Shown here piece by piece: positions 1-18,682 of a stretch of DNA of 20,976 nucleotides. Numbering within the stretch: position 1 is the stretch's first letter; every line of letters starts with the position of its first letter. A program made the translations under genes and the position numbers. The notes under the pieces are model-generated. The model ran no database searches. It was not told the origin of the DNA and saw only the letters and a program-made list of their open reading frames with translations. Origin of the DNA: Candidatus Kuenenia stuttgartensis. Lineage in GTDB: Bacteria; Planctomycetota; UBA11346. The stretch covers positions 1 through 20,976 of the forward strand of contig CAMCAC010000025.1 of the NCBI GenBank assembly GCA_945872305.1. The letters run 5' to 3'.

Positions 1-180
1 CGCCACGGCGATCCCCTGCCCCTCGGCCGCGTCCCGGGACAGGGCCGCCTGGGTGCGCTGGGCGAGTTGGCGGCTGCCGGACAGGCTGGCGCTCTGGCTG
101 GCCAGGAACGGCACCCCGAGCAGGAGGAGGGCCGCGAGCACCACCATGACCAGGACGAGGGCGATGCCGGAACGGTTCAT
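1..180 (-). CDS. N-terminal 60 codons of a pseudopilin-like protein with a GspK-like hydrophobic N-terminus; the gene continues leftward beyond the window
   Basis: Minus-strand ATG at 180-178 overlaps the TGA (179-177) of the upstream gene in an ATGA junction. Translation MNRSGIALVLVMVVLAALLLLGVPFLASQSASLSGSRQLAQRTQAALSRDAAEGQ gives a basic n-region plus a ~20-residue hydrophobic helix, which resembles GspK-type minor pseudopilin N-termini (no F-T-L-x-E motif). The frame stays open to position 1. Confidence 0.4.
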   Translation of the reverse strand, partial: MNRSGIALVLVMVVLAALLLLGVPFLASQSASLSGSRQLAQRTQAALSRDAAEGQGIAVA

Positions 181-1373
181 GGGACAGTGACCAAGGAGGT
201 GACCCGGCCAGCGCCATCGATGGTGATGGCGGCGCTGCGTCCGCCGGTGGATTCGCGGAGGACGATGGTCGTGGCGCCGGCGACGCTGCCGTCCGGGCGG
301 GCCACGACCCGGACGGTGGAGGCAAGGTCGATGCCGCGGGGCAGGGGGGCGGCCTGGTCGGCGCCGAGCCGCCACAGGGCGACATCGTCGATGAGCAGCC
401 CGTCCGCGACCCGTGGGTCCGCCGGTTGGCCGGTCATGGCGATGTCGAGACGGCCGGTGATGACGGCGGGTGTGAACGGGTCCGGGAGGGTGGCCGGTTC
501 ACTGCGCGAGGTCACAGCCAGGGTCCTGCCGTTGCGCAGCAGTCCGAGGCTGGTGCCGTCCCAGACCACGGCGAGTTCGAGCCAACGGTCGCCGCCGATC
601 GGGCCGGCCGGATCGACGGCGGCGCTGCTGGTCGCCGAGCCGACCTGGGATGCGACCCCGTGGCTGGTGAGGATGGTCCGTCCACCGGCGGGATCGGTCC
701 GCCAACCGACCACCTGCCAGGTGGCGGAGCGGACATCGGCGGTCCTGCCGGGATCGCCGACCTGGACGAGATGGTCGTAGGTGACCAGGAGCAGTCCCGC
801 TGCGGACTGCTCCAGGGCGGTGCTGCCGGACTCGACCACCGCCACCACCGGCAGCACGCGGTTCTCGCCCACCCGCGGACGGGGGGGGCGGACCGCGGCG
901 GACAGGATCCATCCATCACGGCGGTTGGGGCGCTCCAGACGGTTCAGCCGTGGCAGGGGGTCGATGGGCCGGCCCAGGGCCGGGTCGGACCATTCGCTGC
1001 TCCATCCGGCTCCGGGGGCCAGGGCGGCGCCGGTGCGCCCGCCGGGGGTGATGCGGGTGTCGGTGGGATCGAAGCCTTCGAATCCCTCCTGCCAGAGGGG
1101 GATGCGGCTGACGCCGCGCACCTGGCGGGCATCCTTGTCGAAAACGAGCACGACCGGCCCACCGCTCGTGCGGGCGGTGTGGCGGGCCTGGCGCAGGGTA
1201 TCGACCACCAGGTGCTCGGCCCCGACCAGGGCATTGCCGCCACTGGTCGCCAGCCAGGCCCCGACCGTCAGGCCCATGAGGGTGGTCAGGATCCCGATGA
1301 CGATGAGCAGTTCGAGGAGCGTGAAGGCATCACGCGCCGGAATGCGGCCGAAGGCGGCGGGCGTGCCACCCAT
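177..1373 (-). CDS. Minor pseudopilin with a prepilin-type N-terminal domain, GspH/FimT-like, fused to a C-terminal LamG/concanavalin-like domain
   Basis: 398-aa ORF. The N-terminus reads AFTLLELLIVIGILTTLMGL (prepilin cleavage/methylation helix) followed by a GspH/FimT-like LVGAEHLVVDTLRQARHTARTSGGPVVLVFD region. The C-terminal half carries a LamG-like signature (LAVVWDGTSLGLLRNGRTLAV...IDDVALWR). The ATG sits 6 bp downstream of the preceding gene's stop. High GC3 codon usage is consistent with coding. Confidence 0.6.
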   Translation of the reverse strand: MGGTPAAFGRIPARDAFTLLELLIVIGILTTLMGLTVGAWLATSGGNALVGAEHLVVDTLRQARHTARTSGGPVVLVFDKDARQVRGVSRIPLWQEGFEGFDPTDTRITPGGRTGAALAPGAGWSSEWSDPALGRPIDPLPRLNRLERPNRRDGWILSAAVRPPRPRVGENRVLPVVAVVESGSTALEQSAAGLLLVTYDHLVQVGDPGRTADVRSATWQVVGWRTDPAGGRTILTSHGVASQVGSATSSAAVDPAGPIGGDRWLELAVVWDGTSLGLLRNGRTLAVTSRSEPATLPDPFTPAVITGRLDIAMTGQPADPRVADGLLIDDVALWRLGADQAAPLPRGIDLASTVRVVARPDGSVAGATTIVLRESTGGRSAAITIDGAGRVTSLVTVP

Positions 1374-1379
1374 CGCCGG

Positions 1380-1949
1380 TCAGGGCTTCCAGTTGGCGAG
1401 GTCGTCCTCGCCCCCATGCGGCATCGTCAGGGTGCTCGCGGGATCGGCGGGATCGGTCCAGTCGACGGGATCCTCTTTCTGGTTGGGCCCCAGGGACCAC
1501 ACCCAGAAGCTGTCCGGCATCGGCACGCCTTTGCCGTCGAGGACCGAGGCGTTGGCGAAGAAATCATCGTAGTTGCGGGTGTCCGCGTAGCGCAGGTCGC
1601 CGCCCCAGGCGTCGATCAGGCCCTTGGGGAAGGCCTCACGGTCCATGGACAGGACCTGGGTCCGCCACTGGCTTTGGTCGGTCTTGGTGGCGTACGGGAA
1701 GAGTCCCCGGGCCTGCTTGTACAGCTGGCAGGCGGCCACGACATTCTTGATGACGGTGGTGGTCTCATTGCGCTTCGACGCCTCCCGCACCATGCCGATC
1801 GCCGGGAAGAGCAGGCCCATGAGGGTGGCGAGGATGCCGATGACGACGAGGAGCTCCATGAGGGTAAATCCCACACGGACGGGAGGGCGGTGCACAGCCA
1901 TGCCATGGCTGACGCCGGGCCGGCGCGGACCTGTCGCCGGGCGGGTCAT
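1380..1949 (-). CDS. gspG: GspG-like major pseudopilin (type II secretion / type IV pilin-like, PVC-type prepilin N-terminus)
   Basis: The N-terminus reads MAVHRPPVRVG|FTLMELLVVIGILATLMGLLFPAIGMVREASKR, a typical prepilin leader plus methylation helix. The C-terminus reads IDAWGGDLRY...DDFF...WSLGPNQ...EDDLANWKP, which parallels the GspG core DPWGxxY...DIFSLGPDG...DDIxNW. The ATG at 1949 overlaps the TGA of the upstream gene (ATGA). An alternative start at 1901 (MAVHRPP) gives an 11-aa leader. Confidence 0.65.
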   Translation of the reverse strand: MTRPATGPRRPGVSHGMAVHRPPVRVGFTLMELLVVIGILATLMGLLFPAIGMVREASKRNETTTVIKNVVAACQLYKQARGLFPYATKTDQSQWRTQVLSMDREAFPKGLIDAWGGDLRYADTRNYDDFFANASVLDGKGVPMPDSFWVWSLGPNQKEDPVDWTDPADPASTLTMPHGGEDDLANWKP

Positions 1950-4900
1950 TCCTCGCCCTCCTCGAAGCAGACCACCTGGCCGGTGCGGATCGGGACGAGC
2001 ACGCGGCCCTCGATCGCCACCGGGGCCGCCACCGCCGGTCCGCCAAGGTCCGCCCGCCAGCGCAGGTGGCCGGTGGCCGGGTCGATGGCGTGGAGCTGGC
2101 CGGCACCATCGGCGGCGTACAGGGCCTTACGCCCCAGGGCGGGGGCGCCGGAGAGGGTGCCCATGGAGCCCTGGGCCGGATAGCGCCAGCGCAACTGGCC
2201 GCTGCGGGTCAGGTCGATGGCGTGGATGCGGCCTTCGGCGGTGGCGGCGAAGGCGGTCCCGCCGACCACCTGGATGCCGACCGGGGCTCCTTCGACCGGC
2301 CAGGCGGCGACCACCCGGCGGCCGTCCGCCACGCCGGTGCCCAGGTCGATGGCCAGGATCTGACCGCTCGCATCGGCCAGGAGCCACACGGACCGTCCGC
2401 CGATCCGGGCCGCGACGGGCTGGCCGACCGCATCGCCGCGGGTGCTGATCTCGCCCAGGGACCTGGCCGGGTTGGCCTCGGTCAGGGTGGTGATGTCGAA
2501 CAGGTGGACGGTGGAGCCGGCGGGGACCGCCAGCACGGTGCGCTCCGCTGAGCGGTCGACGAACGGGGTCGCCGTCACGTCATCCGGCAGGGGGATGCGC
2601 GGGAATCCGGCGACCCGGCCGCGCTCGGTGGAGCCGACCACCTGGATGCCCTGGCCCGCGGCGGCGGCGAACACCAGGGTCTGGTCGTGGACCAGTTCAT
2701 TGCGGTCCACGCACACGAAGCCGGTGAAGCGCAGTCCGGGGCGGCTCGGTTCCGGCCATTGCCAGAGCCGGGACCGGCTTGCCAGATCATACGCCAGGAC
2801 CCGTTCCTCGTGGCCGATGAAGACCCGGCCGTCGCGGATCGCCGGCGGGTGGCGGAACTCGGAGACGGCGTCCTCGATGGCCAGGGGACGGTCCGCCCCG
2901 GTGACCGCGTCGAGGGCGACCAGGCTCGCCCGGTTGGTCCCGAACAGGGCGGTCGTCCCCACCAGGATCGCCGGGGTGGTCACGACGGCGCCCAGCTCCC
3001 GGCGCCAGGCGGGCCCACGGGCCAGGGTGACCGACGCGGTGGTCCGGCGCACCTGGGCGGTGACGACCACGGTCTGGGCTGCGAATCCCGGCCGCACGGC
3101 GGTCACGGAGAGCGTCTCGCCGGGGGCGTAGGTCGCCCGGTGGATCCAGCGGCCGGTGGTCCCCTCGGGGGCCCGGGCGGTCTCGGCGGGGCCGGGGCGG
3201 CCGCCGGTCTGGCTCCGGCTCACGGTGAGGATGGTGCGTGGGGTGTCGACCTGGATGGAGAACGGCAGGGCCAGTCGCGTATACAGGTCCTGCAGCCGGG
3301 GATTGGCGGTCTCGCGCACGAGCTGGGCCAACCGGTCGAGGGATGCGAAGGCATCCTGGTCCTGGCCGCGGTCGGCGGCGGCGACGATCCGTTCGCCCAG
3401 GCGCTCGCCGAGCGCCAGTTCGACCTCGCCCAGACGGACCCGGGCGCGGCTGACCGCGGCCGGCTCGCCGGTGCCGGCGGCGGCCCGCTGGAAGGCGGCC
3501 CGGCCGGACTCGAGGTCGCCGCGGGCCAGGATCCGCTCGGCGCGGGCGGTCAGGGCCTCGGCGGAGGTGTGGTCGGTGGTCCAGCGCAGCCGGGTGGCGG
3601 TCAGGTCGGTGCGCAACTCCGGCGGCAGGTCCTGGCGGTCGAGGATGGGTGCGATCAGGACCAGGGCGCCGTCCCAGTCGTCGGCCTCCCAGCGACGGCG
3701 GGCTTCGCTGTACACGCCGCTCACCTCGATGTCGATCCGCGCCTTGAAGATGCGCTCGCGGAGGGTGGCGGCGTCCGCGGCGGCGCGGGTGCCCGGGAAC
3801 GAGGATTCGAGCCGGCGGACCCCTTCCAGGGCCTTGGCGTACTGGCCGCTGGCGAGCAGCGCATCGGCGCGCTCGGTCTCGATCCGGGCCTGGGCCTCGA
3901 AGTCGCGCTGGATCGACTCGCGCACCTCGGTCACCCGGCTCTGCACGGCCTGGACGCCGCTGTAGGTGCGGGCGGTCTCGTCCAGGGCGGCGATCAGCTT
4001 GGGATGCCCGAGGTCGCCTTTGAGGGTGCGGAAGGCGGTGTTGATGTCGTCGACCTCGGTCAGGCCGTTGCGCTCGAACACCACCTGACGGTAATACTCG
4101 ACGCCGAAGACCGCAGCGATGAGGAGGATCACGCCGGCGGCGATGTAGACGAAGGTGCGGATCGCCCGGCTCGTCTTGACCGACTCGCTGGCCCGGGCGT
4201 GGGCCAGCACCTGGTCCTTCACCGCCTGGTATTTGCAGTCGGCGCCGAGGATGCCTTCGAGCTCCTCAAGGGCCTTGCGCGGGCCGCGGCCGGCGAGCAG
4301 CGCATGCCACAGGGCCTTGTACTCGACCACCGCATTCTCGGTCTGGCCGTCGATGAGGTAGGCGCGGGCGAGGTGGCGGTGCGGGTCCGGGGCACGCGGC
4401 ACCAGGTTCTTGGCCCGGTGGCAGGCGTCGATGGCCCGGGCCGCGTCCTTGGTGCCGAGGAACGACTGGGCGGCCTGGCAGAATGCCTCGGCGGCCTCAT
4501 CCGCGCGGCCGAGGTCGGCCAGGGTGTGGCCGCGGTCGGCGTGCAGCTCCGGATCCTCGGGGGACAGGGCGAGGACGGTGTCGATGTCCGCCAGGGCCTG
4601 TTCCAGCTCGCCGGCGTCCTGGCTGTGCTGGATCAGCTCCAGGTAGATCTCCACCGCGCGCGGCACCTGGTCGGTGGCGGCACAGACCTCGGCCAGGGGG
4701 CGCAGGACCTCGGGGATGCGGGCCTGGCCGAGCGCGACCTCCAGCAGGTCGCGGGCGCGCATGGCCTCGCCGCCCTGGCGCAACGCCACGGCATCCTCGA
4801 CGATCTCCTGGGTGGTGCGCGGGCGGGCGACCTGGGCGAGGACGAGCTGGGCGACGATGGCGAAGGTGTCGAACTGGGTGACCCCGACCTGGCGGGCGAC

Positions 4901-5545
4901 CACGGCCAGGGCGTGGCGGCCATCCAGGTAGCGGACCACCTTGAGCATGTCCGGATCGGTCTGGACGTTCTTGAGGTTGGGGCGGCCTTCATTGTCGACG
5001 ATGAACAGCGTGTTCTCGTCCGGGATGATCTCGCGGATCCGCTTCCATTCATCGCGCCGGCGGGTGGCCTCGAGGATGAGCTGGGTCGTCGGCAGGCGGG
5101 TGGCGCCCATCTCGACCGCATCGAAGCCCTGGAGCTCCGGCGGGATGGGGCCGTCGGCAAAGGAGAACTCGCCTTCGGTCCACTCGAACACCGGGCAGAA
5201 GACCTCCTCGATGCACCAGGCGCAGACTTCGTCGAGGTCGCCATCCGGGATGTAGGCGCTGGCCACGAGCAGGTCGCGCAGGGGCTGGGCGATGGTGCGC
5301 AGGCGGCGGGTCAGCTCCTCGGCCTGGTCGGCGGCCAGCAGGTTGCGCTTGACCAGGGCGTGGATCAGGAACGGCCGCCCATCGACCGGCGGGGCGCTCG
5401 CCGCGGCGATCTGACCCTGATCGAAATGGACGCGCACGGTGCCGGCTGGGCCGGCCACCACCATGGTGCCGGTCTGGCGGTTCATCGCCAGCGTCTGCAC
5501 GATGTCGGTCAGGTTGACGGAAGAGAGTTGGCCCTGGAAACCCAT
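1946..5545 (-). CDS. Large multidomain membrane protein: N-terminal DUF4388 domain, TPR repeats, one TM helix, TPR/coiled-coil region, and a C-terminal PQQ-type beta-propeller
   Basis: 1199-aa ORF. The N-terminus MGFQGQLSSVNLTDIVQTLAMNRQTGTMVV...VRVHFDQGQI matches the DUF4388 consensus (GxLxxFSLxDllQll...kTGtL....g.iyf.nGqiv). TPR-like helical repeats follow (AVEIYLELIQHSQDAGELEQALADIDTVLALSPEDPELHADRGHTLADLGRADEA...). A single hydrophobic segment reads IRTFVYIAAGVILLIAAVFGV. The C-terminal third carries repeated PQQ/BamB-like blades (GQLHAIDPATGHLRWR, GRIHAIDLTRSGQLRWRY, GQILAIDLGTG, RVLAYDLASRSRLWQW). Confidence 0.7.
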   Translation of the reverse strand: MGFQGQLSSVNLTDIVQTLAMNRQTGTMVVAGPAGTVRVHFDQGQIAAASAPPVDGRPFLIHALVKRNLLAADQAEELTRRLRTIAQPLRDLLVASAYIPDGDLDEVCAWCIEEVFCPVFEWTEGEFSFADGPIPPELQGFDAVEMGATRLPTTQLILEATRRRDEWKRIREIIPDENTLFIVDNEGRPNLKNVQTDPDMLKVVRYLDGRHALAVVARQVGVTQFDTFAIVAQLVLAQVARPRTTQEIVEDAVALRQGGEAMRARDLLEVALGQARIPEVLRPLAEVCAATDQVPRAVEIYLELIQHSQDAGELEQALADIDTVLALSPEDPELHADRGHTLADLGRADEAAEAFCQAAQSFLGTKDAARAIDACHRAKNLVPRAPDPHRHLARAYLIDGQTENAVVEYKALWHALLAGRGPRKALEELEGILGADCKYQAVKDQVLAHARASESVKTSRAIRTFVYIAAGVILLIAAVFGVEYYRQVVFERNGLTEVDDINTAFRTLKGDLGHPKLIAALDETARTYSGVQAVQSRVTEVRESIQRDFEAQARIETERADALLASGQYAKALEGVRRLESSFPGTRAAADAATLRERIFKARIDIEVSGVYSEARRRWEADDWDGALVLIAPILDRQDLPPELRTDLTATRLRWTTDHTSAEALTARAERILARGDLESGRAAFQRAAAGTGEPAAVSRARVRLGEVELALGERLGERIVAAADRGQDQDAFASLDRLAQLVRETANPRLQDLYTRLALPFSIQVDTPRTILTVSRSQTGGRPGPAETARAPEGTTGRWIHRATYAPGETLSVTAVRPGFAAQTVVVTAQVRRTTASVTLARGPAWRRELGAVVTTPAILVGTTALFGTNRASLVALDAVTGADRPLAIEDAVSEFRHPPAIRDGRVFIGHEERVLAYDLASRSRLWQWPEPSRPGLRFTGFVCVDRNELVHDQTLVFAAAAGQGIQVVGSTERGRVAGFPRIPLPDDVTATPFVDRSAERTVLAVPAGSTVHLFDITTLTEANPARSLGEISTRGDAVGQPVAARIGGRSVWLLADASGQILAIDLGTGVADGRRVVAAWPVEGAPVGIQVVGGTAFAATAEGRIHAIDLTRSGQLRWRYPAQGSMGTLSGAPALGRKALYAADGAGQLHAIDPATGHLRWRADLGGPAVAAPVAIEGRVLVPIRTGQVVCFEEGEE

Positions 5546-5600
5546 GGTGGGACAAGGCTAGGCAGGGATCCCGCGGTGCCAGCAGGGATCTCGGGGGCCG

Positions 5601-5620
5601 CCCCCGCCGGCGGCCGGGGG
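5601..5620. other. Short GC hairpin just past the permease stop, in the 76-bp gap before the DUF4388 gene ATG
   Basis: cccccg (5601-5606) / loop ccggcggc / cggggg (5615-5620). The adjacent direct repeat cagggatc (5574-5581 and 5583-5590) is also noted. There is no U-tract, so it may simply be an intra-operon structure. Confidence 0.2.
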
Positions 5621-5621
5621 C

Positions 5622-6818
5622 CTATTCGTGGCGCAGGGCCTCGATCGGATCCAGCCGGGCGGCCCGGCGGGCCGGGTACCAGCCGAAGAACAGGCCCACC
5701 GCCACGGATACCGCCAGGGCCATCAGGATCGCGCCGCCCTGGACCACCGGCGGGAACGGCATCACCGCCGCCGCCAGGGCGGTCAGGCCCCACCCGAGGA
5801 GCACGCCCAGGATCCCGCCGGTGCCGGTGACCAGGGCCGCCTCGATGAGGAACTGGCGCCGGATGTCGCGCTCCCGGGCGCCGATGGCCTTGCGCAGGCC
5901 GATCTCCCGGGTCCGTTCGGTCACTGCCACGAGCATGATGTTCATGATCCCGATGCCGCCGACGAGCAGGCTGACCGCGGCGATGCCGGCGAGCAGGGCG
6001 GCGAACACGCCGCTGATCTGGCGCAGTTGGTTCAGGATGTCCTGGTTGCGGTAGATGGCGAAGTCGCGCTGGGCCGGGTCGGCCAGACGGTGGCGGCGGA
6101 GCAGGGTGCGGCCCACCGCCTCCTCGGCGGCTTCGAGCCGCCCGGGCCGGGCGAGGACCTGGATCTGGCCCAGGCGCCCGCCGTCGACCAGCCCGCGGCG
6201 GGCGGCGGCCAGGGGCACGATGGCCATCTCGTCCGGCTCCAGGAAGCCCTGGCGGCCCTGGGCGGCGAGCACGCCCACCACCCGCATGGGGACGGGACCG
6301 ACCAGGACCGTCTGGCCCAGGGGCTCCCGGTCCGGGAACAGCCGGCCGGCGACCGCGGTGCCGAGCACCGCCACCGGGATGCCCAGGTCGCTCTCGCTGG
6401 CGGTGAACAGCCGGCCCCGGGCCACCGGGAGGTCGGTGCAGGCGAAATAGCCGTCGCTGGTGGCGATGACATTCGCGGTGCTCTCCCGGCCGGCACCGCG
6501 CAGGGTCGCCCCGGGCGCCTGCTGGACCGGGGCCACCGCCGCCACCTCGGGGAGGGTGGCGAGGGCCGACGCATCACCGGGATCCAGGCCGCGCACCGCC
6601 CGCGGCCGGCGGCCGTCGCCCCAGTCGTCGAACACGAACATCACCTCGGCGCCTTTGCGGGCGAAGCCCTGCACGAGCCGCTGCTCGGCCCCGGCGCCCA
6701 CCGCGAGCATGGCGATCACCGCCGCCACCCCGATCACCACCCCGGACATGGCGAGCAGGCTGCGCAGGGGATTGCCGCGCAGGCTCTGGACCGCGGTGGA
6801 CAGGAGCATCAGCCACAT
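5622..6818 (-). CDS. ABC transporter permease, FtsX/MacB (DevC/LolC-like) family
   Basis: 398 aa. The N-terminus [29 protein letters not shown] is the MacB-type permease signature, followed by a periplasmic domain. The C-terminal FtsX core reads [40 protein letters not shown] plus terminal TM helices. The start (6818 or 6809) overlaps the upstream ATPase stop (6809-6811). Confidence 0.85.
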
Positions 6819-7516
6819 GGCGGCGCCCCCTCGTCACTGGCGACGAGCCCATCCGCGAGCCGGATCCGACGCGGGCAGCGGGCCGCCACCCCGGGATCGT
6901 GGGTGACGATGACGATGGTCCGGCCCTCGCGGTGCAGTTCCGCGAACAGGCCGAGGATCTCCTCGCCGGTGCGCGAATCGAGGTTGCCGGTGGGCTCGTC
7001 CGCCAGGAGCAGGGCCGGGCTGCCGGCCAGGGCCCGGGCGATGGCGACCCGCTGGCGCTGGCCGCCGCTGAGCTGGTTCGGACGGTGACGCAGGCGGTCG
7101 CCGAGCCCGACCCGGCGCAGGGCCGTCTCGGCCGCCGCCCGCGCATCGGCGCGCCGGGCGTAGCGCAGGGGCAACGCCACATTCTCCACCGCATCCAGGC
7201 GCGGGAGGAGATGAAAACTCTGGAAAATGAAGCCGATCCGCCGGTTGCGGATCGCGGCCAGGCGGTCGCCATGGATCGCGGTGATGTCCTCGCCATCCAG
7301 GCGGTAGGTCCCCGCATCCGGCTTGTCCAGGCAGCCGAGGATGTGCATCAGGGTGGACTTGCCGCTGCCGCTCGCGCCGAGGATCGCCGCCATCTCCCCG
7401 GCCCGGATGCGCACATCGACCCCGGCCAGGGCGTGCACCGTCTCGCCGCCGACGGTGTAGGTCTTGCGCAGGGCGGTGGCGTCGATGACCGGGGCGGCCC
7501 CCGCAGCGTCGCTCAT
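6809..7516 (-). CDS. ABC transporter ATP-binding protein, MacB/LolD/DevA-type nucleotide-binding domain
   Basis: 235 aa with Walker [11 protein letters not shown]-loop, ABC signature [15 protein letters not shown], Walker [13 protein letters not shown] and H-loop VTHD. The ATG at 7516 overlaps the TGA of the membrane-fusion protein gene (ATGA at 7513-7516). Confidence 0.9.
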
Positions 7517-8790
7517 AGGCCGAAATCCATCTCGTCGCGCCAGCGGATCTTGCCCGCGGGGGGCAGTTCCACGGATTCGCCGGCGTCCAGGCCGGAGAGG
7601 ATCTGCTGGCGGCGGCCGTCGGTGCCGCCGACCAGCACGGCCCGGGTCCCGGACGATGCGGCGGCGCTGGCGCTGCGCAGGACCACCTCGGTGCGGCCGT
7701 CGATCCGGCGGACGGCCTCGACCGGGATGGTGATGGCGGCGGCTTCATCAACGGTGGTGATCTCGACCCCGACGGTCATGGGCGGGCGCAGGGGCAGGTC
7801 GGATCCGGCCAGGCGGATGGTCACCGGGAAGCTGACCGATCGCCCCTCGCGCACGCCCTCGCTGGCGATGGCGGCGACCGTGCCCGAAAAGCGCCGGCCC
7901 GGGAACGCTTCGCAGGTGACCACGGTGAGCTGGCCCGGGTGGACCCGGCCCACATCGGATTCCGGCAGATCGACCTGGACCGAGAGCCGGGACAGATCCG
8001 CCAGGGCCGCCACCTGGGTGCCGCCGCCGATGGTGGTGATGCCGGAACTGACGATCTGGCCGACCTCGACCAGGACCCGGGTCACGGTGCCATCCACCGG
8101 GGCGGTGATCCGGGTCTTGGCCAGGCGCCGGCGGGCGTCGTCCAGGTCGAGTTCCCGGCTGCGCAGGTCCGCTTCCGCCAGGGCGAGTTCCGCCTGGGCG
8201 ACGGCGATGTCGGCTCCCCGCAGGGCGGCCTCGTCGATGGCCAGCCGTGCCCCGGCCAGTCCGGCGACCGCGGTGGCTTCGCCGGCGATGGCCGCGTCGG
8301 TGCTCTCGGGGGTGGTCACGCCCTGGCGGAGGAGATCGCGTTGCCGGGCGGCCCGGGTGGCGGATTCCGCAGCCCGGGCCCTGGCCGCGGCCAGTTCCGC
8401 CGCCGCCCGCTCCTGGGCCAGGGCGGTGGCCCGGGTCTCCCGGTCCAGACGCAGGCGGGCCTGGTCGAGCCGGGCCCGGGCGGCGACCACCCCGGCCTCG
8501 GCCCGGGCCACCACCCGGCGCTCGTCGTCGGGATCGAGCTGCACAAGCAGGTCCCCGGCCCGCACCGGCAATCCCGAAGCCGCCGGCACCGCCGCCACCT
8601 GGCCGCTCGCTTCCGCCTTGATCTCCACGCTCTGGGCGCTGACCACCCGGCCGCTGGCGGTGATCGTTTCGATGAAGCGTCCCTGTTCCGCCGTCGCGGT
8701 GGCCACCGGCGGGGGTGGTGGATCCCCGCATCCGGCGACCAGGACCACGGATGCCAGGAGCCAGCGCATGCGGGGAGCGTTCATGCGCAT
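7513..8790 (-). CDS. Efflux periplasmic adaptor (membrane-fusion protein), HlyD/MacA-like lipoprotein
   Basis: The ORF is open to 8859, but the plausible start is 8790 (MRMNAPRMRWLLASVVLVAGC), which gives a lipoprotein signal with an LVAGC lipobox. It has a beta-barrel/lipoyl-like N-domain (FIETITASGRVVSAQSVEIKAEASGQV), a long Ala/Arg-rich alpha-helical hairpin (~130 aa), and a C-terminal beta domain (VTRVLVEVGQIVSSG...). This is the first gene of the MFP-ATPase-permease set. Confidence 0.8.
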   Translation of the reverse strand: MRMNAPRMRWLLASVVLVAGCGDPPPPPVATATAEQGRFIETITASGRVVSAQSVEIKAEASGQVAAVPAASGLPVRAGDLLVQLDPDDERRVVARAEAGVVAARARLDQARLRLDRETRATALAQERAAAELAAARARAAESATRAARQRDLLRQGVTTPESTDAAIAGEATAVAGLAGARLAIDEAALRGADIAVAQAELALAEADLRSRELDLDDARRRLAKTRITAPVDGTVTRVLVEVGQIVSSGITTIGGGTQVAALADLSRLSVQVDLPESDVGRVHPGQLTVVTCEAFPGRRFSGTVAAIASEGVREGRSVSFPVTIRLAGSDLPLRPPMTVGVEITTVDEAAAITIPVEAVRRIDGRTEVVLRSASAAASSGTRAVLVGGTDGRRQQILSGLDAGESVELPPAGKIRWRDEMDFGL

Positions 8791-8885
8791 TCCGGACGCA
8801 CCAGCCCCCGGAAACTGACGATCAAACAGGTATAAGGATATCCGGGCGTTGTTATCCATTATGTTCCGGGCACTGTGGCGGAGCC
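8791..8885. promoter_or_regulatory. Divergent promoter/operator region between the MFP operon (minus) and the NMO-family gene (plus). It is a local low-GC island with a palindromic element.
   Basis: The only AT-rich stretch in this part of the window is ctgacgatcaaacaggtataaggatatccgggcgttgttatccattatgttccggg. It contains the palindrome GGATATCC (8836-8843), GGATA (8836-8840) inverted to TATCC (8853-8857), and a repeated tccggg (8841-8846, 8865-8870). It also carries a TATAAG -10-like hexamer. Confidence 0.35.
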
Positions 8886-10310
8886 ATGCCTGACCCCGCC
8901 CGCCGCCCGCTCCCCCGCATCATCCAAGGAGGCATGGGTGCCGCCGTCTCCACGTGGCGCCTGGCCCGGGCGGTCTCCGCCCAGGGCGGCCTGGGCGTGG
9001 TGAGTGGCACCGCCATCGAGCGGGTGCTGGCCTGCCGGCTCCAGGAAGGTGATCCGGGCGGGATCATGCGTGCCGCCATCGCCCGCTTCCCGGACCAGAC
9101 CATGGCCCGGTCCGTGGTCGGCCGCTGGTACCGCCCCGACGGCCTGCCGGCGCCGGGTGTGTATGCCCCGGTCCCCATGTTTTCGGAACGCTCACCGGCG
9201 GACCTCATCCATCTCGCCGTCGTCGCGGCCTTCGTCGAGATCACCCTGGCCCGCCAGGACGATGCAGGGGTTCCCCATGGCGGTCAGGTGGGCATCAACC
9301 TGCTGGAAAAGATCCAGCCGCCGACCCTGCCGCTCCTGCATGGAGCCATGCTCGCCGGAGTGGACTGGGTGCTCATGGGCGCGGGAATCCCGCGCGAGAT
9401 CCCAGGCCACCTGGACCGCCTCGCCAGGGGCGAACCCACCGCCCTGAAACTGGCGGTGGCGGACGGTCCGGCCATCGAACTGCCCTACGATCCAGCCATC
9501 GTCCAGCCGCTGGCACCGCTCGCCCGTCCGGGCTTCCTGGCGGTGGTGGCCAGCGATGTCATGGCGGCTTCCCTGGCCCGCTCCGGCGGGGTGGATGGCT
9601 TCGTCGTCGAAGGCCCCACCGCCGGCGGCCACAACGCCCCCCCACGGGGCGCCGGTCGGACCCCCGTCGCCAGGCCGGTGTACGGCGAGCGCGACCGGGC
9701 CGATCTCGCCCGCATGCGCAGCTTCGGCGTGCCGTTCTGGCTGGCCGGCGGGCAGGCTGGACCGGGCGCCCTGGCGGCTGCCCTGGAGGCCGGGGCCGCG
9801 GGTGTGCAGATCGGCACCGCCTTCGCCTTCTGCCGTGAATCCGGACTCGATGGGGCCGTGCGCCGCCGGATCCTCGATGGTGTGCGGGCCGGCACGGTCC
9901 AGGTGATCACCGATGGGCGCGCCTCGCCGACCGGATTCCCGTTCAAGACCATGGACATACCCGGCAGCGAAGGCGGCCGGCCGGCCGACGCCCGGGAGCG
10001 TGGGGCCTGCATGATGGGATACCTGCGCAGCCCCTACCGGCGGGCGGATGGCGGCCTGGGCTGGCGGTGTCCCGCGGAGCCTGAAACCCAATGGTCGGCA
10101 AAGGGCGGAGACAGCGCCGAGTGCGCCGACCGCCGTTGCCTGTGCCAGGGACTGATGTCCGCAGCGGGCCATCCGCACGTCGGCGAAGAGGGCCTGGAGT
10201 GGCCCCTGATCACCGCTGGCGACGATCTGGAGCCGGTGCGCCGCTGCCTGGACGGACGCGAGGACTACAGTGCCGCCGACGTGATGACCCAGGTGGCCGT
10301 CGCACCCTGA
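8886..10310 (+). CDS. FMN-dependent nitronate monooxygenase / 2-nitropropane dioxygenase (FabK-like enoyl reductase) family oxidoreductase with a Cys-containing C-terminal extension
   Basis: Start chosen at the MPDPARRPLPRIIQGGMGAAVSTWRLARAVSAQGGLGVVSG match to the NMO family N-terminal motif (PIIQgGMa.vs...LAaAVS.AGGLG). The ORF is open upstream to 8715, but that extension lacks homology and overlaps the divergent gene. The ~475-aa product is longer than typical ~330-360-aa NMOs. The tail from ~residue 380 has Cys pairs (GACMMGY...WRCPAEP...AECADRRCLCQG). Confidence 0.65.
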   Translation: MPDPARRPLPRIIQGGMGAAVSTWRLARAVSAQGGLGVVSGTAIERVLACRLQEGDPGGIMRAAIARFPDQTMARSVVGRWYRPDGLPAPGVYAPVPMFSERSPADLIHLAVVAAFVEITLARQDDAGVPHGGQVGINLLEKIQPPTLPLLHGAMLAGVDWVLMGAGIPREIPGHLDRLARGEPTALKLAVADGPAIELPYDPAIVQPLAPLARPGFLAVVASDVMAASLARSGGVDGFVVEGPTAGGHNAPPRGAGRTPVARPVYGERDRADLARMRSFGVPFWLAGGQAGPGALAAALEAGAAGVQIGTAFAFCRESGLDGAVRRRILDGVRAGTVQVITDGRASPTGFPFKTMDIPGSEGGRPADARERGACMMGYLRSPYRRADGGLGWRCPAEPETQWSAKGGDSAECADRRCLCQGLMSAAGHPHVGEEGLEWPLITAGDDLEPVRRCLDGREDYSAADVMTQVAVAP

Positions 10311-10499: not shown

Positions 10500-13400
10500 T
10501 CACTTCCCTGCGGCGAGCAGTTTCCGCATGAAGGTCAGTTCCTCGCGGAAGGCCGCATCGTCCGGGAACGCCTTGACCGCCCGTTCGGCGGCCGTCAGAG
10601 CCCGCTCGTTCGCCCCGACCAGGACGGCCCGCCAGGCGATGAGGAACCACTTCGGCTTGTAGTTCAGCTCCGCCTGCCACACGTCGAGCACGGTGGTGAA
10701 CCATGCGGCCGAGGCCTGGGGGGCGCGGGCGCCGAGGGTGTCCGCGGTCATGTCGCGCAGACGCTTGTCGTTGAGGTCCTTCACCCGGCGCAGGCAGGCC
10801 TGGAGCAGCGCCTTGTCCTCGGTCAGCAGGGCGAGATCGAGGCGGCTCATGTGACGCTGGATCTCGATGCTGGAATCGGTCAGGCCCAGGGCATCGGCCC
10901 GGGTGAAGGCCTCCTCGACCCTGGCGGCGGCGGCGCGCACCTTGCCCAGATCCGCGGTGCCGGCCTTGATCGCGTCGTCGTTGTAGGCGCGCAGCTGCTG
11001 GCCGAACCAGTAGGGGACCGACAGGCGGATCCACGACAGGTCGCGGGCCTGTTGCGCCTCGCCGGGCTGGCGGCGGGAATGGTCGACCTTGCCCGCGGCG
11101 GGCCAGGGGGCCGCGGCGACCGCGGTGGCGACCGCCTCCTCGCCACCCATGGAGCGGGCGAGATGCCGGGCCAGGGCGGCGTAGCGGAAATGGATGTCGC
11201 CCGGGTCTTCGACATCGCTGAAGGCGATCTTGTCGATCCAGGTGGCGGCCCGTTCCTCGGCGGCGCGCACCCCGGCGTCCGAGCGTTCGTGCTCCGGCGC
11301 CTTCTCGACCAGATCCAGGGACAGATCGGCATAGCGGGCGAGCATCTGGCGGAGCAGCATCAGGCCGCCGGTGTCGTTCACCCAGCGCTCGCGGAAGCGG
11401 GCGTTGCCGAGCATGGCCACGACCTTGCCCATCTGCTCATCCAGCGGTGCCGCGGTCTGCTCCAGGATCGCCGCCGCCGAGGCGGACAGGCCGAGCTGGG
11501 ACGCCTGGCCGGCAAGATCGAAACCGTACTCGACCATGCCCTGGCCCATCGCCGCGGCGAGTTCCGGATCCTGGAGGCGGGCGATCTCCTCGCCGATCAG
11601 GGTGCGCGCGCGGGCGTCGTCCTTGGCCTCGCGCAGAAGCCCGATCAGTTCAACGCGGCGCAGGGCCAGGGATTGCGCATCGTCGATCCCGGTCATCGCC
11701 TTTTCGAAATATTCCACGGCCTTGCCGTATTGGCCGGTGAAATGGTACAGGCCGCTCAGCTCCGTGATGTTGGCGGGATCGAGATCGCCGCCGTCGACCA
11801 GCTTCTGCATCTTGGCGATGCCGCGGGCATAGGTCTGGTACTGCCAGTCGCGTTGCACATCGATCATGATCCGGGCGTATTCGGGCTCGGCGAAGATCCG
11901 CCAGCCGAGCCGCCAGGCCCCGCGGGTGTTCTCGCCGGAGAAGCGCAGGAGCAGGCCCAGCCCGTTGGGGTCGAACGGCGCGTTGGGATTGAAGTGGGTG
12001 AAGGCGGCGCGCAGGGCCTCGGGCAGGGTCTCGCGCACGAAGTGCAGGGTCGGACCGGTCTGCATCACGGTCACCGACCAGCCCTCGGCGGCCTTGGTGG
12101 CGGTCGCGAAGGCGGTGTGGCTGGGCAGGGTGAGCAGGTGGCCGAGCCGGCCCTGCCGCTCGGCCACGGTCTGGTACAGTTCCCCGAGGTCGTCGCAGTC
12201 GCCGCGGCAGGCGCCGAGGGTGTTGCTGGTCAGGATCTGCTCGGTGGTCTGGTGGATGTCGCTCTTGACCGTCTTGTTGCCGGCCAGGAGCGGGAAGCGC
12301 GGATCCGGGCTGTCGTAGGTGTAGCGGAAGAAATATTGGCCGAGCAGGTCCAGCCGACCCAGGCTGTCGAGGATGCGCGCGCTGTCGGCGAGGAACCGCC
12401 CCGCCTCGGCGGAGGTCCCGTCGCGCATGGCGCGCAGGGTCCCGGTCTCGACCGCCAGGAAGAGGGGATCGCCGGCGGGGCTGGCGACCAGGATGTGCGG
12501 CGGGTACAGGTCCGGCAGATCGGTGTCGTCGGGACGGGGTACCGCCTTGCGCCAGGTCTTGGCGTCGACCGTCAGCCCCTTGTCCCGGGTCCACGAGGCC
12601 AGGCGTGTGCCGCTGCGATCGAAGACCCGGGCGGCCACCGCCTTGGCGGCGTCGCGGTCGGGGTCCGATCCGGCGGGCAGATCCACGGTCAGGACCAGAT
12701 TGAGCGGGGAATTGTAGAAAGGCTCCGGATGGGCGATCCGGTAGGCGGTGCGGGAGGGGGCGTTCAGCACCCATACCCCGCCGCCGAAGGCGTCACGACG
12801 GTCCTCGATGGTGATCTTGCCGTCTGCGCTCGCGTGGCCCGACGCGGGGCCGCGGCGCATCGCCGCGGCCACCGCCGCTTCGACCGCTGCGGTCTCGGCC
12901 CCGGCCTGGGGCAGGGTGGCAAGCCAGCCGCCGCGGACGAGGCGGCGGGCCGCCGCCGGGGTGTATTCGTCCAACGGCCTGGCCCGGTCCTTTTCCGGCA
13001 GCAGGTCGAGGGTGGCGACGATCGCGTCCCGGGTCCGCCGTTCGATGGTTCCCGCCGCCACATCCTTGTCGATACGCGCGGTGAGCGCGGCCACCGCCTT
13101 GGCCACCGCGGCGAGGTCCTTGCCGCGGTCGGTTTCGGCATTGGGCATGGCCCGGAGCAGGCCCTCCTCGATGGCGAGCCATTCCTTGCTCGCCAGGGTC
13201 AGCCCGGCCAGGGGGGACATCTGCAGGGCGGCGGTGCCGCTCGCCTTGCCGGCCTCGGCCTGGGCGACCAGCCGGGCCAGGGCCTTTGCGGCGGCGGCGT
13301 CCTGGGCCAGGGCCTTGTTCACCGTCACCGGGCCGACCGGGGTCGCCACGGTCAGGTGCTCCCCGGGCACCCAGGGATAGCCGCCCCAGGTCCAACCGCT

Positions 13401-13541
13401 CTCGGATGTGACCAGGGCCTGGGCCAGGGCGGCGGGCGGCTTGACCGGGGTCGCACCCTGGTCGGCGGTGGACGGCTCGGCACCGGGCAGGGCGCAGGCG
13501 ATGGCGAGCAGGGCGGGGACGAGACGGTGCATGGTGGGCAT
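10500..13541 (-). CDS. Large secreted hypothetical protein (~1013 aa) with a signal peptide, a central region containing a possible transglutaminase-like Cys/His core, and a TPR-like helical C-terminal region
   Basis: The ORF is open to 13739, but MPTMHRLVPALLAIACALPGAEP at 13541 is a classical signal peptide. Amino-acid composition is diverse (K, F, Y, W present), unlike the Gly/Arg-rich antisense frame. The central segment GACRGDCDDLGELYQTVAERQGRLGHLLTLPSHTAF loosely fits the transglutaminase-like core. The C-terminal 450 aa are alpha-helical repeat-like. Confidence 0.55.
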   Translation of the reverse strand: MPTMHRLVPALLAIACALPGAEPSTADQGATPVKPPAALAQALVTSESGWTWGGYPWVPGEHLTVATPVGPVTVNKALAQDAAAAKALARLVAQAEAGKASGTAALQMSPLAGLTLASKEWLAIEEGLLRAMPNAETDRGKDLAAVAKAVAALTARIDKDVAAGTIERRTRDAIVATLDLLPEKDRARPLDEYTPAAARRLVRGGWLATLPQAGAETAAVEAAVAAAMRRGPASGHASADGKITIEDRRDAFGGGVWVLNAPSRTAYRIAHPEPFYNSPLNLVLTVDLPAGSDPDRDAAKAVAARVFDRSGTRLASWTRDKGLTVDAKTWRKAVPRPDDTDLPDLYPPHILVASPAGDPLFLAVETGTLRAMRDGTSAEAGRFLADSARILDSLGRLDLLGQYFFRYTYDSPDPRFPLLAGNKTVKSDIHQTTEQILTSNTLGACRGDCDDLGELYQTVAERQGRLGHLLTLPSHTAFATATKAAEGWSVTVMQTGPTLHFVRETLPEALRAAFTHFNPNAPFDPNGLGLLLRFSGENTRGAWRLGWRIFAEPEYARIMIDVQRDWQYQTYARGIAKMQKLVDGGDLDPANITELSGLYHFTGQYGKAVEYFEKAMTGIDDAQSLALRRVELIGLLREAKDDARARTLIGEEIARLQDPELAAAMGQGMVEYGFDLAGQASQLGLSASAAAILEQTAAPLDEQMGKVVAMLGNARFRERWVNDTGGLMLLRQMLARYADLSLDLVEKAPEHERSDAGVRAAEERAATWIDKIAFSDVEDPGDIHFRYAALARHLARSMGGEEAVATAVAAAPWPAAGKVDHSRRQPGEAQQARDLSWIRLSVPYWFGQQLRAYNDDAIKAGTADLGKVRAAAARVEEAFTRADALGLTDSSIEIQRHMSRLDLALLTEDKALLQACLRRVKDLNDKRLRDMTADTLGARAPQASAAWFTTVLDVWQAELNYKPKWFLIAWRAVLVGANERALTAAERAVKAFPDDAAFREELTFMRKLLAAGK

Positions 13542-13671
13542 AGTGTCGACCTGGGCGCGGCGTCGATAGCCCATCCCTGCACGCCTGCGTGTGGTCCGGC
13601 AGACAGTTCCCCGCGGCCGCTGCGTCGCGGTGCCGGCTGGACGCCGCCCGGTGGGCAGGAGGATCCCGCCC
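13542..13671. promoter_or_regulatory. Divergent intergenic region (secreted-protein gene on minus, nadE on plus) containing the nadE ribosome-binding site
   Basis: AGGAGG at 13656-13661 lies 10 nt upstream of the nadE ATG (13672). This is the presumed location of divergent promoters. Confidence 0.5.
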
Positions 13672-15437: not shown

Positions 15438-16208
15438 ATGGATCACCTCCTCACCGCCCTCAGCGCCTTCCCGACCGTGGTGTTCACCACCCTGCTTGCC
15501 GCAGCGGTGGTGTACTGGCTGCTGGTCATCCTCGGGGCGCTGGACCTGGACCTGTTCCACCTGGGCGATGCGGACGCCGGTGATCATGATCCGCACGCCG
15601 GCCACAACGGGTTCGCCATCCTGGAGTTCCTCCGGGTGGGGCAGGTGCCGATCACGGTGATCTCGAGCCTGTTCATCGTCTTCGCCTGGCTCGCCAGTTT
15701 CGCCGCCACGATGTTCCTTCGGCCGGTGGTGCCGGAGTGGTCGTGGTGGCTGTTCGGCGGGGCGACCCTGGTGGGGGCCATCGTGGTCGCCTACCTGGGC
15801 ACCGGCTTCGTCAGCGCGGGTCTTGCCCGGGTATTCTCCATCCGCGGGACGGTCACCGCCGCGAGCCTGGTCGGCCGGGTCGTGGAGGTCACCTCGTCCA
15901 CGGTGGACGCCCGGTATGGCACCGCCCGTCACGACCGGTTGACCGGTGAGGACATCCTCCTCAACGTGGTCTGCGATCCCGCCCACACCCTGAAGCGCGG
16001 CGACCAGGCGGTCATCATGGAATACGATGCCGGCAAGGGTGTGTACCTGATCGCGCCCCTGCCCCACACCCGGGAGGGCTTCGCCGTCGAGGCGGAGCCG
16101 CGCCCGGCCCTGCCGCCCCCGGCGGGCGCCGCCGAGCCCGTCGCCCCGCCCGTCGACACTCCCGCCCCGGCCGCCGCCCCCGGCCGCCGCGACACCCTCG
16201 CCCAATGA
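15438..16208 (+). CDS. yqiJ: YqiJ-like inner-membrane protein (DUF1449) with a C-terminal NfeD-like OB-fold
   Basis: 256 aa. It has N-terminal TM helices with an acidic/His-rich loop (LDLDLFHLGDADAGDHDPHAGH), further TM helices, and a C-terminal beta-rich domain (GRVVEVTSSTVDARYGTARHDRLTGEDILLNVVCDPAHTLKRGDQAVIMEYDAGKGVYLIA) that matches the layout of E. coli YqiJ. The stop overlaps the flotillin gene ATG (ATGA at 16205-16208). Confidence 0.75.
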   Translation: MDHLLTALSAFPTVVFTTLLAAAVVYWLLVILGALDLDLFHLGDADAGDHDPHAGHNGFAILEFLRVGQVPITVISSLFIVFAWLASFAATMFLRPVVPEWSWWLFGGATLVGAIVVAYLGTGFVSAGLARVFSIRGTVTAASLVGRVVEVTSSTVDARYGTARHDRLTGEDILLNVVCDPAHTLKRGDQAVIMEYDAGKGVYLIAPLPHTREGFAVEAEPRPALPPPAGAAEPVAPPVDTPAPAAAPGRRDTLAQ

Positions 16209-18490: not shown

Positions 18491-18497
18491 ACGTCGG
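18482..18497. other. Perfect palindrome CCGACGT-GA-ACGTCGG spanning the flotillin stop codon
   Basis: ccgacgt (18482-18488), ga, acgtcgg (18491-18497). The central TGA is the yqiK stop. It could form a 6-bp GC stem with a TGAA tetraloop and lies immediately 5' of the G-rich heptad array. Confidence 0.5.
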
Positions 18498-18682
18498 GGT
18501 TCCGGGTTTGGGGTTTCGGGTTTCGGGACGGTGGGTTCCGGGTTTCTGGAGAGCGATGAGATGAACGCCATGGCAGCGGAAACTCTGTGGACCCTGTGCA
18601 TTCGCAGGTCACTTCCGCACCTCCGTCCCTCCCTCCCGAAACCCGAAACCCGAAACCCGAAACCCAGGTTCCCGAACCCACC
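18497..18682. repeat. Inverted arrays of GGGTTTC-type heptads flanking an ~80-nt spacer. The left arm is G-rich on the + strand (G3N4 x5) and the right arm is C-rich on the + strand (C3N4 x5). This gives a potential long stem-loop or paired G-quadruplex / i-motif elements.
   Basis: Left arm 18497-18549: gggttccgggtttggggtttcgggtttcgggacggtgggttccgggtttctgg. Right arm 18631-18682: ccctcccgaaacccgaaacccgaaacccgaaacccaggttcccgaacccacc, largely the reverse complement of the left arm (gggtttcgggtttcggg / cccgaaacccgaaaccc; ggtgggttccggg / cccgaacccacc). It sits in the 190-bp gap between the flotillin stop (18490) and the ATG of the next gene (18683). Confidence 0.8.

Follow-up and report, generated by a model that had tools for sequence, protein, structure and literature searches.

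Introduction

Type IV filaments are primed by core sets of minor pilins with a PilX cap that lacks the glutamate at position 5 (Glu5), and cyanobacterial caps may be giant HpsA-like proteins, for which a role as substitutes of PilY1 has been proposed (bioRxiv 10.64898/2026.02.12.705559). Modular pilins that carry a grafted lectin domain occur widely (bioRxiv 10.1101/2021.01.27.428410). On the cytoplasmic side, MglA-GTP recruits SgmX, a tetratricopeptide repeat (TPR) protein through which PilB reaches the pilus machine (PMC11580455), and Bdellovibrio MglA binds the TPR protein Bd2492 (PMC3983030). A cyanobacterial PATAN domain binds PilB1 and PilC (bioRxiv 10.1101/2021.06.11.447907), and PATAN genes occur near mglA/mglB according to a passage in PMC4316618 that cites Makarova et al. 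2006. Here we analyze a 20,976-nt stretch of DNA assigned to Candidatus Kuenenia stuttgartensis (GCA_945872305.1, contig CAMCAC010000025.1, positions 1 to 20,976; hereafter the window), whose left part encodes an ATP-binding cassette (ABC) exporter, a 1199-aa protein with PATAN, TPR, transmembrane (TM) and propeller regions, and a set of pseudopilins.

On balance, we favor the view that two unrelated units lie side by side. One is the exporter (5622-8859). The other, from 5545 leftwards, would be a Planctomycetota cassette in which minor pseudopilins with a giant cap make up a tip or priming set. The type IV filament machine that serves this set would have its genes elsewhere, and the 1199-aa protein would be the dedicated transmembrane adaptor or regulator of the set. 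Such a cassette joins three themes that are known separately, namely the MglA/MglB switch, the motor-contacting PATAN domain and minor-pilin tip complexes with giant caps, and in Planctomycetota it is one membrane-spanning protein that joins them. Our literature searches returned no description of the cassette, of a minor-pilin set tied to a PATAN-TPR-TM-propeller gene and mglA/mglB, or of MglA with pili in Planctomycetota.

Organization of the gene cluster

The window has a G+C content of 72%, which makes its raw open reading frame (ORF) lists noisy. The minus-strand series in the window nevertheless coincides with the public gene calls for the parent contig (ENA ERZ27280294 k141_2522696, 35,038 bp) and reads as follows.

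7513-8859, minus strand: membrane fusion protein (MFP; periplasmic adaptor), 448 aa, HlyD_3/HlyD_D23 and TIGR01730
6809-7516, minus strand: ABC ATPase of the MacB/LolD/FtsE type, 235 aa, ABC_tran
5622-6818, minus strand: permease of the MacB type, 398 aa, MacB_PCD and FtsX, 4 TM
5546-5621, minus strand: spacer between the permease gene and the 1199-aa gene, 76 bp
1946-5545, minus strand: large bitopic membrane protein, 1199 aa, the core of the conserved cassette
1380-1949, minus strand: GspG-like pseudopilin, 189 aa
177-1373, minus strand: GspH-like pseudopilin with a LamG module, 398 aa
1-180, minus strand: first 60 codons of a giant GspK/PilX-like pseudopilin, 1746 aa, which continues past the left window edge (L001:11194-16434)

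Read from the sequence, 4-bp ATGA overlaps join the MFP and ABC genes, the 1199-aa and G-like genes, and the H-like and giant genes. The ABC and permease genes overlap by 10 bp (1 bp if the second methionine is the start), and the G-like and H-like genes are 6 bp apart. An earlier note on this DNA, made from sequence alone, had described seven co-directional minus-strand genes that overlap by ATGA or lie at most 76 bp apart; the ORF listing, the public gene calls and the junctions all agree, with the 10-bp overlap as an addition. Its domain identities for the MFP, ATPase, permease, 1199-aa protein and pilins are likewise borne out by Pfam and NCBIfam. The gene order of its putative seven-gene operon holds, but an eighth co-directional gene follows the giant with a 4-bp overlap and encodes a fourth prepilin-type protein, cut by the contig end.

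The full cluster order is found on a closely related contig (JGI 3300059473; giant 69% identical; gene calls only), which reads NMO on the opposite strand, MFP, ABC, permease, 1199 aa, a pilin of 193 aa, a pilin of 398 aa, a giant of 1715 aa and a pilin of 354 aa. The fourth pilin is followed by TerC and Sod genes on the other strand, and then by genes for a helix-turn-helix protein and an FHA protein. Since TerC and Sod are on the other strand, the operon ends after the fourth pilin. Sod also lies downstream of the cassette in locus L045.

Linkage of the 1199-aa gene to pseudopilin and MglA genes

A pattern scan for the 1199-aa family, with one genome per GTDB species, gave 41 loci, nearly all of them titled Planctomycetota metagenome-assembled genomes; a few carry the label Kuenenia/Brocadiaceae, and two are titled no more precisely than "bacterium". 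The window proteins and the neighbors of L045 were compared with these loci by tblastn, and 33 loci have at least ~560 bp of readable upstream DNA. Where at least 1.5 kb of downstream DNA is present, the G-like, H-like and giant genes, usually with a fourth pilin gene, directly follow the 1199-aa homologue on the same strand (19 of 27 loci). The H-like orthologues stand directly after the G-like gene in related loci.

A block of TPR-Roadblock, Roadblock, GTPase and Roadblock genes directly precedes the homologue in 17 of the 22 loci with at least 4 kb upstream, and its last Roadblock gene is directly upstream in 25 of the 33. The GTPase is MglA, matching Thermus MglA (PDB 3t12) over its full length at E = 9e-78 and M. 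xanthus MglA at E = 2e-72. The last Roadblock protein, of 172 aa, matches the MglB model over its full length (E = 1.5e-18), and Robl_LC7 is the domain of the other two, in one of which it is fused to TPR. The same five-gene block, with a sigma-54 activator ahead of it and no pilins, is retained by a homologue of just 27% identity from Planctomycetota (P0136). In a neighbor-joining tree of the family, MglA/Roadblock and pilin genes occur together on the deep branches, and the loci that lack MglA/Roadblock, the window and L044 among them, hold derived positions. The upstream MglA/Roadblock block is therefore probably ancestral. Neither MglA nor Roadblock has a tblastn match anywhere in the window, and gene calls with Pfam find neither in the ~8 kb of contig past its right end; in the window lineage, mglA and mglB are no longer adjacent to the cassette.

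These distributions bear on a reading in which the 1199-aa protein is a membrane-anchored landmark or effector of MglA/MglB with no direct role in a pseudopilus, the pilin genes being merely co-regulated or syntenic. The MglA/Roadblock link is deeper than the pilin link, being kept in the 27% identical pilin-less homologue and in L015 and L016; eight of 27 loci have no pilins; and an association of PATAN with MglA/MglB is known independently of pili (PMC4316618). We nevertheless regard it as unlikely. The pilin block is immediate and co-directional in the 19 loci across the whole tree, including its deepest branches, and overlaps the 1199-aa gene by 4 bp in the window and in L044. Residues 485-1199, nearly two thirds of the protein, are periplasmic and evolve as fast as the pilins. 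In known systems, moreover, type IV pili are where the outputs of MglA and PATAN meet (PMC11580455; bioRxiv 10.1101/2021.06.11.447907).

Two further features of the MglA-block loci were seen. MglA homologues are called as 458-538 aa in L045:7888-9432, L046:8017-9393 and L132:2666-4282; the C-terminal extension past the ~195-aa GTPase is rich in Pro, Ala and Arg in L045, the only one read, and may be real or a high-GC frame artefact. A gene for a DAGK-family lipid kinase stands divergently upstream of the TPR-Roadblock gene in most of these loci, ~4 kb upstream of the 1199-aa homologue (L008, L009, L010, L012, L013, L045 and others).

A PATAN-TPR-TM-propeller protein

The 1199-aa protein contains DUF4388/PatA_N, TPR and PQQ_2 (73 bits) regions. 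Its PATAN match (PF14332) reaches E = 6.8e-25 and 87.9 bits against a cutoff of 25, and the whole profile (positions 1-122 of 122) is aligned, with an insertion inside it. An AlphaFold2 (AF2) model built with 23 family members has a mean predicted local distance difference test score (pLDDT) of 87.6, and together with the profile matches it gives the following architecture.

5042-5536, minus strand: PATAN domain (PF14332), residues 4-168, cytoplasmic; modelled over residues 1-175 as a beta-sheet with a helical insertion
Residues 181-242: small helical module, cytoplasmic, from the AF2 model
4193-4813, minus strand: TPR-like helical repeats, residues 245-451, cytoplasmic, from Pfam and the AF2 model
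4094-4156, minus strand: single TM helix at about residues 464-484, a hydropathy peak with a K/R N-terminal flank and an acidic C-terminal flank
3026-4093, minus strand: helical repeats (485-757) and a beta-sandwich (760-840), periplasmic, AF2 pLDDT ~80-92
1949-3007, minus strand: 8-bladed BamB/PQQ-type beta-propeller, residues 847-1199, periplasmic, from fold matches

This single TM helix with K/R on its N-terminal side upholds the topology that the earlier note had proposed, with DUF4388 in the cytoplasm and the propeller in the periplasm. Conservation differs sharply between the two sides. The cytoplasmic half is 57-64% identical across the family (means of 57% for PATAN and 60% for the TPR region, which is the most conserved part and has many invariant residues), whereas the periplasmic half is fast-evolving at 30-38%, with 30-37% for the helical-repeat and beta-sandwich region 485-840.

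The family comprises 115 full-length clusters at 35-84% identity, almost all of 1187-1276 aa with a few truncated. All named members are from Planctomycetota, and all cassette members come from uncultured genomes. An exhaustive HMMER search with the family returned 78 proteins at E <= 1e-30, as well as many further proteins of 1000-1230 aa that match only residues 1-480 (PATAN and TPR). This suggests that the PATAN-TPR half is common to a large superfamily of such proteins. A paralogous group of ~1100 aa adjoins Ser/Thr kinase and PP2C phosphatase genes instead; in L131:10001-18351, for example, a 28% identical PATAN-TPR-PQQ protein of 1103 aa is followed by a 1075-aa Ser/Thr kinase, a metallo-beta-lactamase-fold protein and a PP2C phosphatase.

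Two kinds of described protein invite comparison. PixE, PixG and TaxP1, the PatA-type PATAN-receiver regulators of cyanobacterial type IV pili, are alike in the full-profile PATAN domain, in the association of relatives with MglA/Roadblock genes and in a plausible type IV filament output. Unlike these soluble proteins, the 1199-aa protein is bitopic and has no Response_reg match in Pfam; TPR, TM and propeller come after PATAN in the model in place of a receiver. SgmX of Myxococcus xanthus and Bd2492 of Bdellovibrio are alike as TPR proteins that are encoded or act with MglA, and their output in their own organisms is polar type IV pilus formation through PilB recruitment. Those two are cytoplasmic, whereas here the TPR region belongs to a membrane protein encoded beside pseudopilins, and the likeness considered is one of TPR repeats and the MglA connection.

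The propeller could itself be the active part, helping to assemble the giant in the manner of BamB or a chaperone, or plugging it as PilY1 would, with PATAN and TPR serving only as an anchor or oligomerization device and no coupling to a GTPase or ATPase. The 8-bladed BamB-type fold agrees with this, as does the window lineage, which works without adjacent mglA/mglB; in addition, a passage of bioRxiv 10.1101/2021.01.27.428410 describes beta-propeller tip adhesins (PilY1) that accompany the minor pilins of type IVa pili (T4aP). We judge this possibility quite improbable. Conservation is highest in the cytoplasmic half, where dozens of residues are invariant; this speaks for a particular, conserved binding partner and against a passive anchor. 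PilY1 is absent among the fold matches listed for the propeller (the top 50-60 of each search). The propeller is also tethered to the inner membrane, whereas BamB is an outer-membrane lipoprotein and PilY1 is secreted to the tip. BamB identity as such was rejected: TIGR03300 scores 71 bits against a cutoff of 285, and the propeller here forms the C-terminal end of an inner-membrane protein that is bitopic and has no lipobox.

The pseudopilin set

Class III signal peptide sites are present at G^FTLMEL in the G-like protein, at A^FTLLEL in the H-like protein and at G^FTLVEI (the caret marks the cleavage site), with support from N_methyl and TIGR02532. The G-like protein has a G^FTLMELLVV N-terminus, and its C-terminal GGEDDLANW resembles GTEDDITNW of E. 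coli GspG; it scores 34.8 bits with TIGR01710, and the L045 orthologue 42.6, against a cutoff of 88.85. The H-like protein combines an A^FTLLELL prepilin N-terminus and a GspH/FimU-like helix region (GspH 22-23 bits against a cutoff of 80) with a C-terminal LamG/ConA-like module, which is weak in Pfam (Laminin_G_3, E = 0.009) and has a profile match to PDB 4qvs at E = 4.9e-7. The fourth pilin has an N_methyl match of 28 bits and best resembles GspJ, over its N-terminal 63 residues only (24.5 bits).

The giant lacks any Pfam domain, and its only NCBIfam match is T2SS_GspK at E = 0.27. Eleven aligned orthologues measure 1645-2000 aa. Its N-terminus reads MNRSG^IALVLVMVVLAALLLLGVPFL, without Glu at +5, and the region around the cleavage site, RSG^IALVL, follows a consensus without Glu5 (R-x-G^A-A-L-I-x-A-L-V-x-L-A-A-L-L-L-L-G-L-P-F-L) that is kept in the 11 orthologues. 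The motifs EDESGKLDxNxL, GITDWDD and PLTRAELERLRPYLT are reminiscent of GspK, and the window lineage also has TVNPNTAGDAVLATL (TVNPNTA). The giant profile found only chance matches in the PDB, with Nad3 picked up through the LLGLPFL helix, and a second homologue search, with an 11-sequence alignment, gave the same 9 proteins as before. By its N-terminus and motifs, the giant is a candidate cap subunit of the GspK/PilX type without Glu5, and it is not an ordinary GspK. The label "GspK-like" in the earlier note thus holds for the motifs, but not for a 1746-aa protein without a Pfam domain as an ordinary GspK.

The cassette resembles the minor-pilin sets of the type II secretion system (T2SS; GspH-I-J-K), T4aP (FimU-PilV-PilW-PilX) and cyanobacteria (HpsA-like PilX_EPS) in having several clustered prepilin-type genes apart from the machine genes. 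Three of its members have a G/A-F-T-L-x-E site and a bulky one lacks Glu5, as in PilX and GspK, and modules are grafted onto the pilins (here LamG and the giant extension). Unlike those sets, it has four subunits instead of five, its giant has no HpsA, GspK or PilX domain detectable by hidden Markov models (HMMs), and it is linked to a PATAN-TPR-TM-propeller gene and mglA/mglB.

Membership in three described groups was rejected. For HpsA, the giant has no NCBIfam or Pfam match at E <= 1 except GspK at 0.27; a faint HpsC match (E = 0.0087) came from the fourth pilin of L045. The pilins are not canonical T2SS pseudopilins, as the GspG, GspH and GspJ scores are all below cutoff, GspK stands at E = 0.27 and a GspI-like gene was not found. 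A secretin (GspD) gene and GspE/F/C/L/M genes are absent throughout the 35-kb parent contig, from the flanks (10 kb) of L045 and L046 and from the related JGI contig, so that the statement in the earlier note that this is not a canonical T2SS extends beyond the left window edge. The remainder of the parent contig has no pilus or MglA gene. The Verru_Chthon cassette (TIGR02596/TIGR02599 and related families) of Verrucomicrobia is alike in consisting of prepilin-like proteins from the same superphylum (Planctomycetes-Verrucomicrobia-Chlamydiae, PVC), with weak N-terminal matches to its proteins C and D. That cassette comprises four genes, one of them for a very large protein. Only the N-terminal helix is matched, and the scores stay far below cutoff (protein D, 18.8-23.9 bits against 70; protein C, 17.7-21.3 against 256.5), models A and B match none of the pilins, and the giant matches no model of that cassette.

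The exporter is a neighbor in the window lineage

The adaptor, a separate nucleotide-binding domain and a permease with MacB_PCD and C-terminal FtsX together identify the upstream genes as a MacAB-type exporter. The MFP scores 162 bits with TIGR01730, above the cutoff of 94.9. Like MacAB-TolC, LolCDE, DevBCA and the YknXYZ-type (type VII) ABC systems, the window exporter has a full inner-membrane set, with a 4-TM permease carrying the MacB periplasmic core domain. Unlike them it is no equivalog: none of its proteins reaches the NCBIfam equivalog cutoffs for MacA/MacB, LolD/C/E or DevA/B, and only the generic TIGR01730 is reached. The likely true MFP start is ~8793, at MRMNAPRMRWLLASVVLVAGC (MRMNAPRMRW...), with the lipobox LVAGC; the 66 nt before this internal start (8793-8859) are unusually AT-rich for the genome and face the divergent NMO gene.

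In none of the 33 GTDB loci whose upstream DNA is readable did tblastn find an MFP or permease gene ahead of the 1199-aa homologue. In L044, the closest relative with DNA (1199-aa protein 84% identical), a gene for a 760-aa sigma-54 activator ends 12 bp before the gene. Approached from the permease side, 64 of the best 80 metagenomic relatives (34-43% identity; 735 kb of context in all) have an ABC gene directly ahead of the permease and 43 have MFP plus ABC, while a 1199-aa homologue, pilin, giant or NMO gene accompanies none of the 80. The three exporter genes stand beside the 1199-aa gene only on the window contig and on its close relative JGI 3300059473. Because linkage is absent from both the 33 GTDB loci and the 80 permease loci, the MFP/ABC/permease unit is an ordinary, self-contained exporter that is an upstream neighbor of the pilin cassette only in the window lineage.

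The earlier note had instead proposed one system, in which the MacB-type pump, its MFP and the pseudopilins cooperate, with the PATAN-PQQ protein as the scaffold between them. Its genes are co-directional with overlaps or short gaps, a terminator was not detected in the 76-bp spacer, and the order from the opposite-strand NMO gene through MFP, ABC, permease and 1199-aa gene to the pilins recurs on a second related contig. That contig is a close relative, however, and descent explains the shared order. In the 84% identical relative the upstream gene is another one, with a breakpoint ~55 nt before the ATG, and no PATAN or pilin gene lies at the best permease-relative loci. We therefore consider a single system very improbable, and the join between a MacAB/DevBCA-like module and pseudopilins through the PQQ protein is not supported. 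What survives of the proposal that this protein couples two modules is its tie to the pseudopilins, conserved in Planctomycetota. The gene-neighborhood comparison that the note had suggested splits in the same way: the linkage of 1199-aa and pilin genes recurs, and MFP and permease genes never lie upstream of the 1199-aa gene in the 33 GTDB loci, an outcome that the note itself had named as speaking against that part.

The absence of an outer-membrane factor (OMF) had also been put forward as a sign of a special cassette. No TolC-like OMF is encoded on the parent contig, and on the related JGI contig no tolC gene adjoins the operon. In E. coli, macAB is encoded apart from tolC, and OMF genes are commonly unlinked. 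As MacAB-type loci normally have no adjacent OMF, the argument is weak, and the missing OMF gene does not speak for a single system.

A proposed mechanism and the evidence against it

In the favored reading, the four pilins would form a tip or priming complex, with the G-like protein as fibre or adaptor, the H-like protein as adaptor, the J-like protein as core subunit and the Glu5-less giant as distal cap and adhesin or ligand binder. The complex would be assembled by a type IV filament machine of the type IV pilus or T2SS type encoded elsewhere, with the 1199-aa protein as its dedicated transmembrane adaptor. Its TPR region may receive MglA-GTP, as SgmX and Bd2492 do, and its PATAN domain may contact the extension ATPase or platform, as cyanobacterial PATAN does with PilB1 and PilC. 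Its fast-evolving periplasmic part would contact the equally fast-evolving pseudopilins. Assembly of a special filament would thus come under polarity or GTPase control.

Taken to its full extent, the PATAN-TPR-TM-propeller protein would be an undescribed transmembrane effector of MglA/MglB that links the GTPase state and, via PATAN, the extension ATPase to a periplasmic priming complex with a giant GspK-like adhesin cap, yielding a GTPase-gated, polar, specialized type IV filament in Planctomycetota. We offer this bolder version tentatively and think it rather unlikely. If true, such a filament could be the molecular basis of the polar fibres or attachment structures of Planctomycetota. Were the coupling real, the cassette would provide a compact genetic entry to the placement and control of filaments in budding, polar Planctomycetota, as well as a natural case of one polypeptide that connects GTPase signalling in the cytoplasm with the priming of a filament in the periplasm.

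Several observations weigh against the favored reading. The pilin link is absent in eight of the 27 loci, where unrelated housekeeping genes lie downstream instead (glycogen phosphorylase in four, in two lineages), and the MglA link is absent in eight of the 33, the window included. Since either link is missing at some loci, the 1199-aa protein can work without adjacent pilin or MglA genes. The G/H/J pseudopilins match their HMMs only over the N-terminal part and in every case score below the curated cutoffs (for GspJ, 19-24.5 bits against 64.85), and the set has no GspI/PilV-like fifth subunit. The giant is assigned to GspK/PilX from motifs only: Pfam searches with six N-terminal segments gave nothing significant (PilX_N, E = 0.2-2.4), hhalign against E. 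coli GspK gave a probability of 48% for the N-terminal helix only, and an AF2 model of the N-terminal 499 aa from an 8-sequence alignment was unusable (pLDDT 42). The propeller resembles BamB and generic 8-bladed propellers, and so offers no specific functional clue. The exporter genes run in the direction of the cassette across the 76-bp gap, where no terminator was found, and keep their order on the second contig, so the exporter might be co-expressed with the cassette, or its function recruited, in the window lineage. The steps of the mechanism, finally, are drawn by analogy and from gene neighborhood.

The region upstream of the 1199-aa gene

Approximately 50 nt just before the ATG of the 1199-aa gene are common to the window (5546-5600) and L044 (2950-3004) despite their different upstream genes. 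The conserved stretch reads GGATCCC..CTGGCACCGCGGGA..CCTAGCCT..CCACCATG, and similarity is lost farther upstream, which places a rearrangement breakpoint between the two loci ~55 nt before the ATG. The leader is kept while the upstream gene differs; the 1199-aa gene therefore appears to bring its own short leader or promoter region. Within the 76-bp spacer, CTGGCA-N16-TAGCCT is a possible sigma-70-like promoter. Searches of the spacer found no terminator, no sigma-70 consensus and no sigma-54 consensus.

Two other candidates were rejected. A structured RNA in the spacer is not indicated, as its fold z-score (-0.39) is no better than that of shuffles. A TGGCAC in the spacer and the sigma-54 activators of L044 and L132 prompted a search for a sigma-54 promoter of the 1199-aa gene; TGGCAC-N5-TTGCW occurs 0 times in the operon and 2 times elsewhere in the window, against 6.3 expected.

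A different motif, AACCTTGC[CT]GCC ... TCCTACGGT, precedes the 1199-aa homologue in L005, L023 and L038 and has diverged (...TCCTAC) in L007. Such conserved upstream motifs are possibly promoters of near-leaderless transcripts. Sigma-54 enhancer-binding proteins are encoded directly upstream of the cassette in two independent lineages, beside the 1199-aa gene in L044 (L044:710-2992) and before the MglA/Roadblock block in L132 (L132:1-930).

Neighboring genes

Apart from the cluster, the parent contig encodes NMO, a 1024-aa unknown, NadE, two unknowns, a 1739-aa DUF3686/AAA protein, an ABC ATPase, an RNase D-like protein and a 1056-aa protein. The NMO gene (8886-10310, plus strand) is divergent from the MFP gene. 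It stands between the cluster and the 1024-aa ORF (10500-13574, minus strand), which is co-directional with the cluster, shows a good coding bias in third-position G+C (GC3) and has no Pfam or PADLOC match.

The right part of the window (15438-20976, plus strand) contains three co-directional genes, for proteins of 256 aa, 755 aa and then 1739 aa, the last a DUF3686/AAA_5/DUF7902 protein that leaves the window. PADLOC returned zero matches for the right-hand window genes, and the 256-aa and 755-aa genes have no Pfam match either. The AT skew over the region of the 755-aa gene (~16.5-18.5 kb) is unusually strong, at +0.3 to +0.45.

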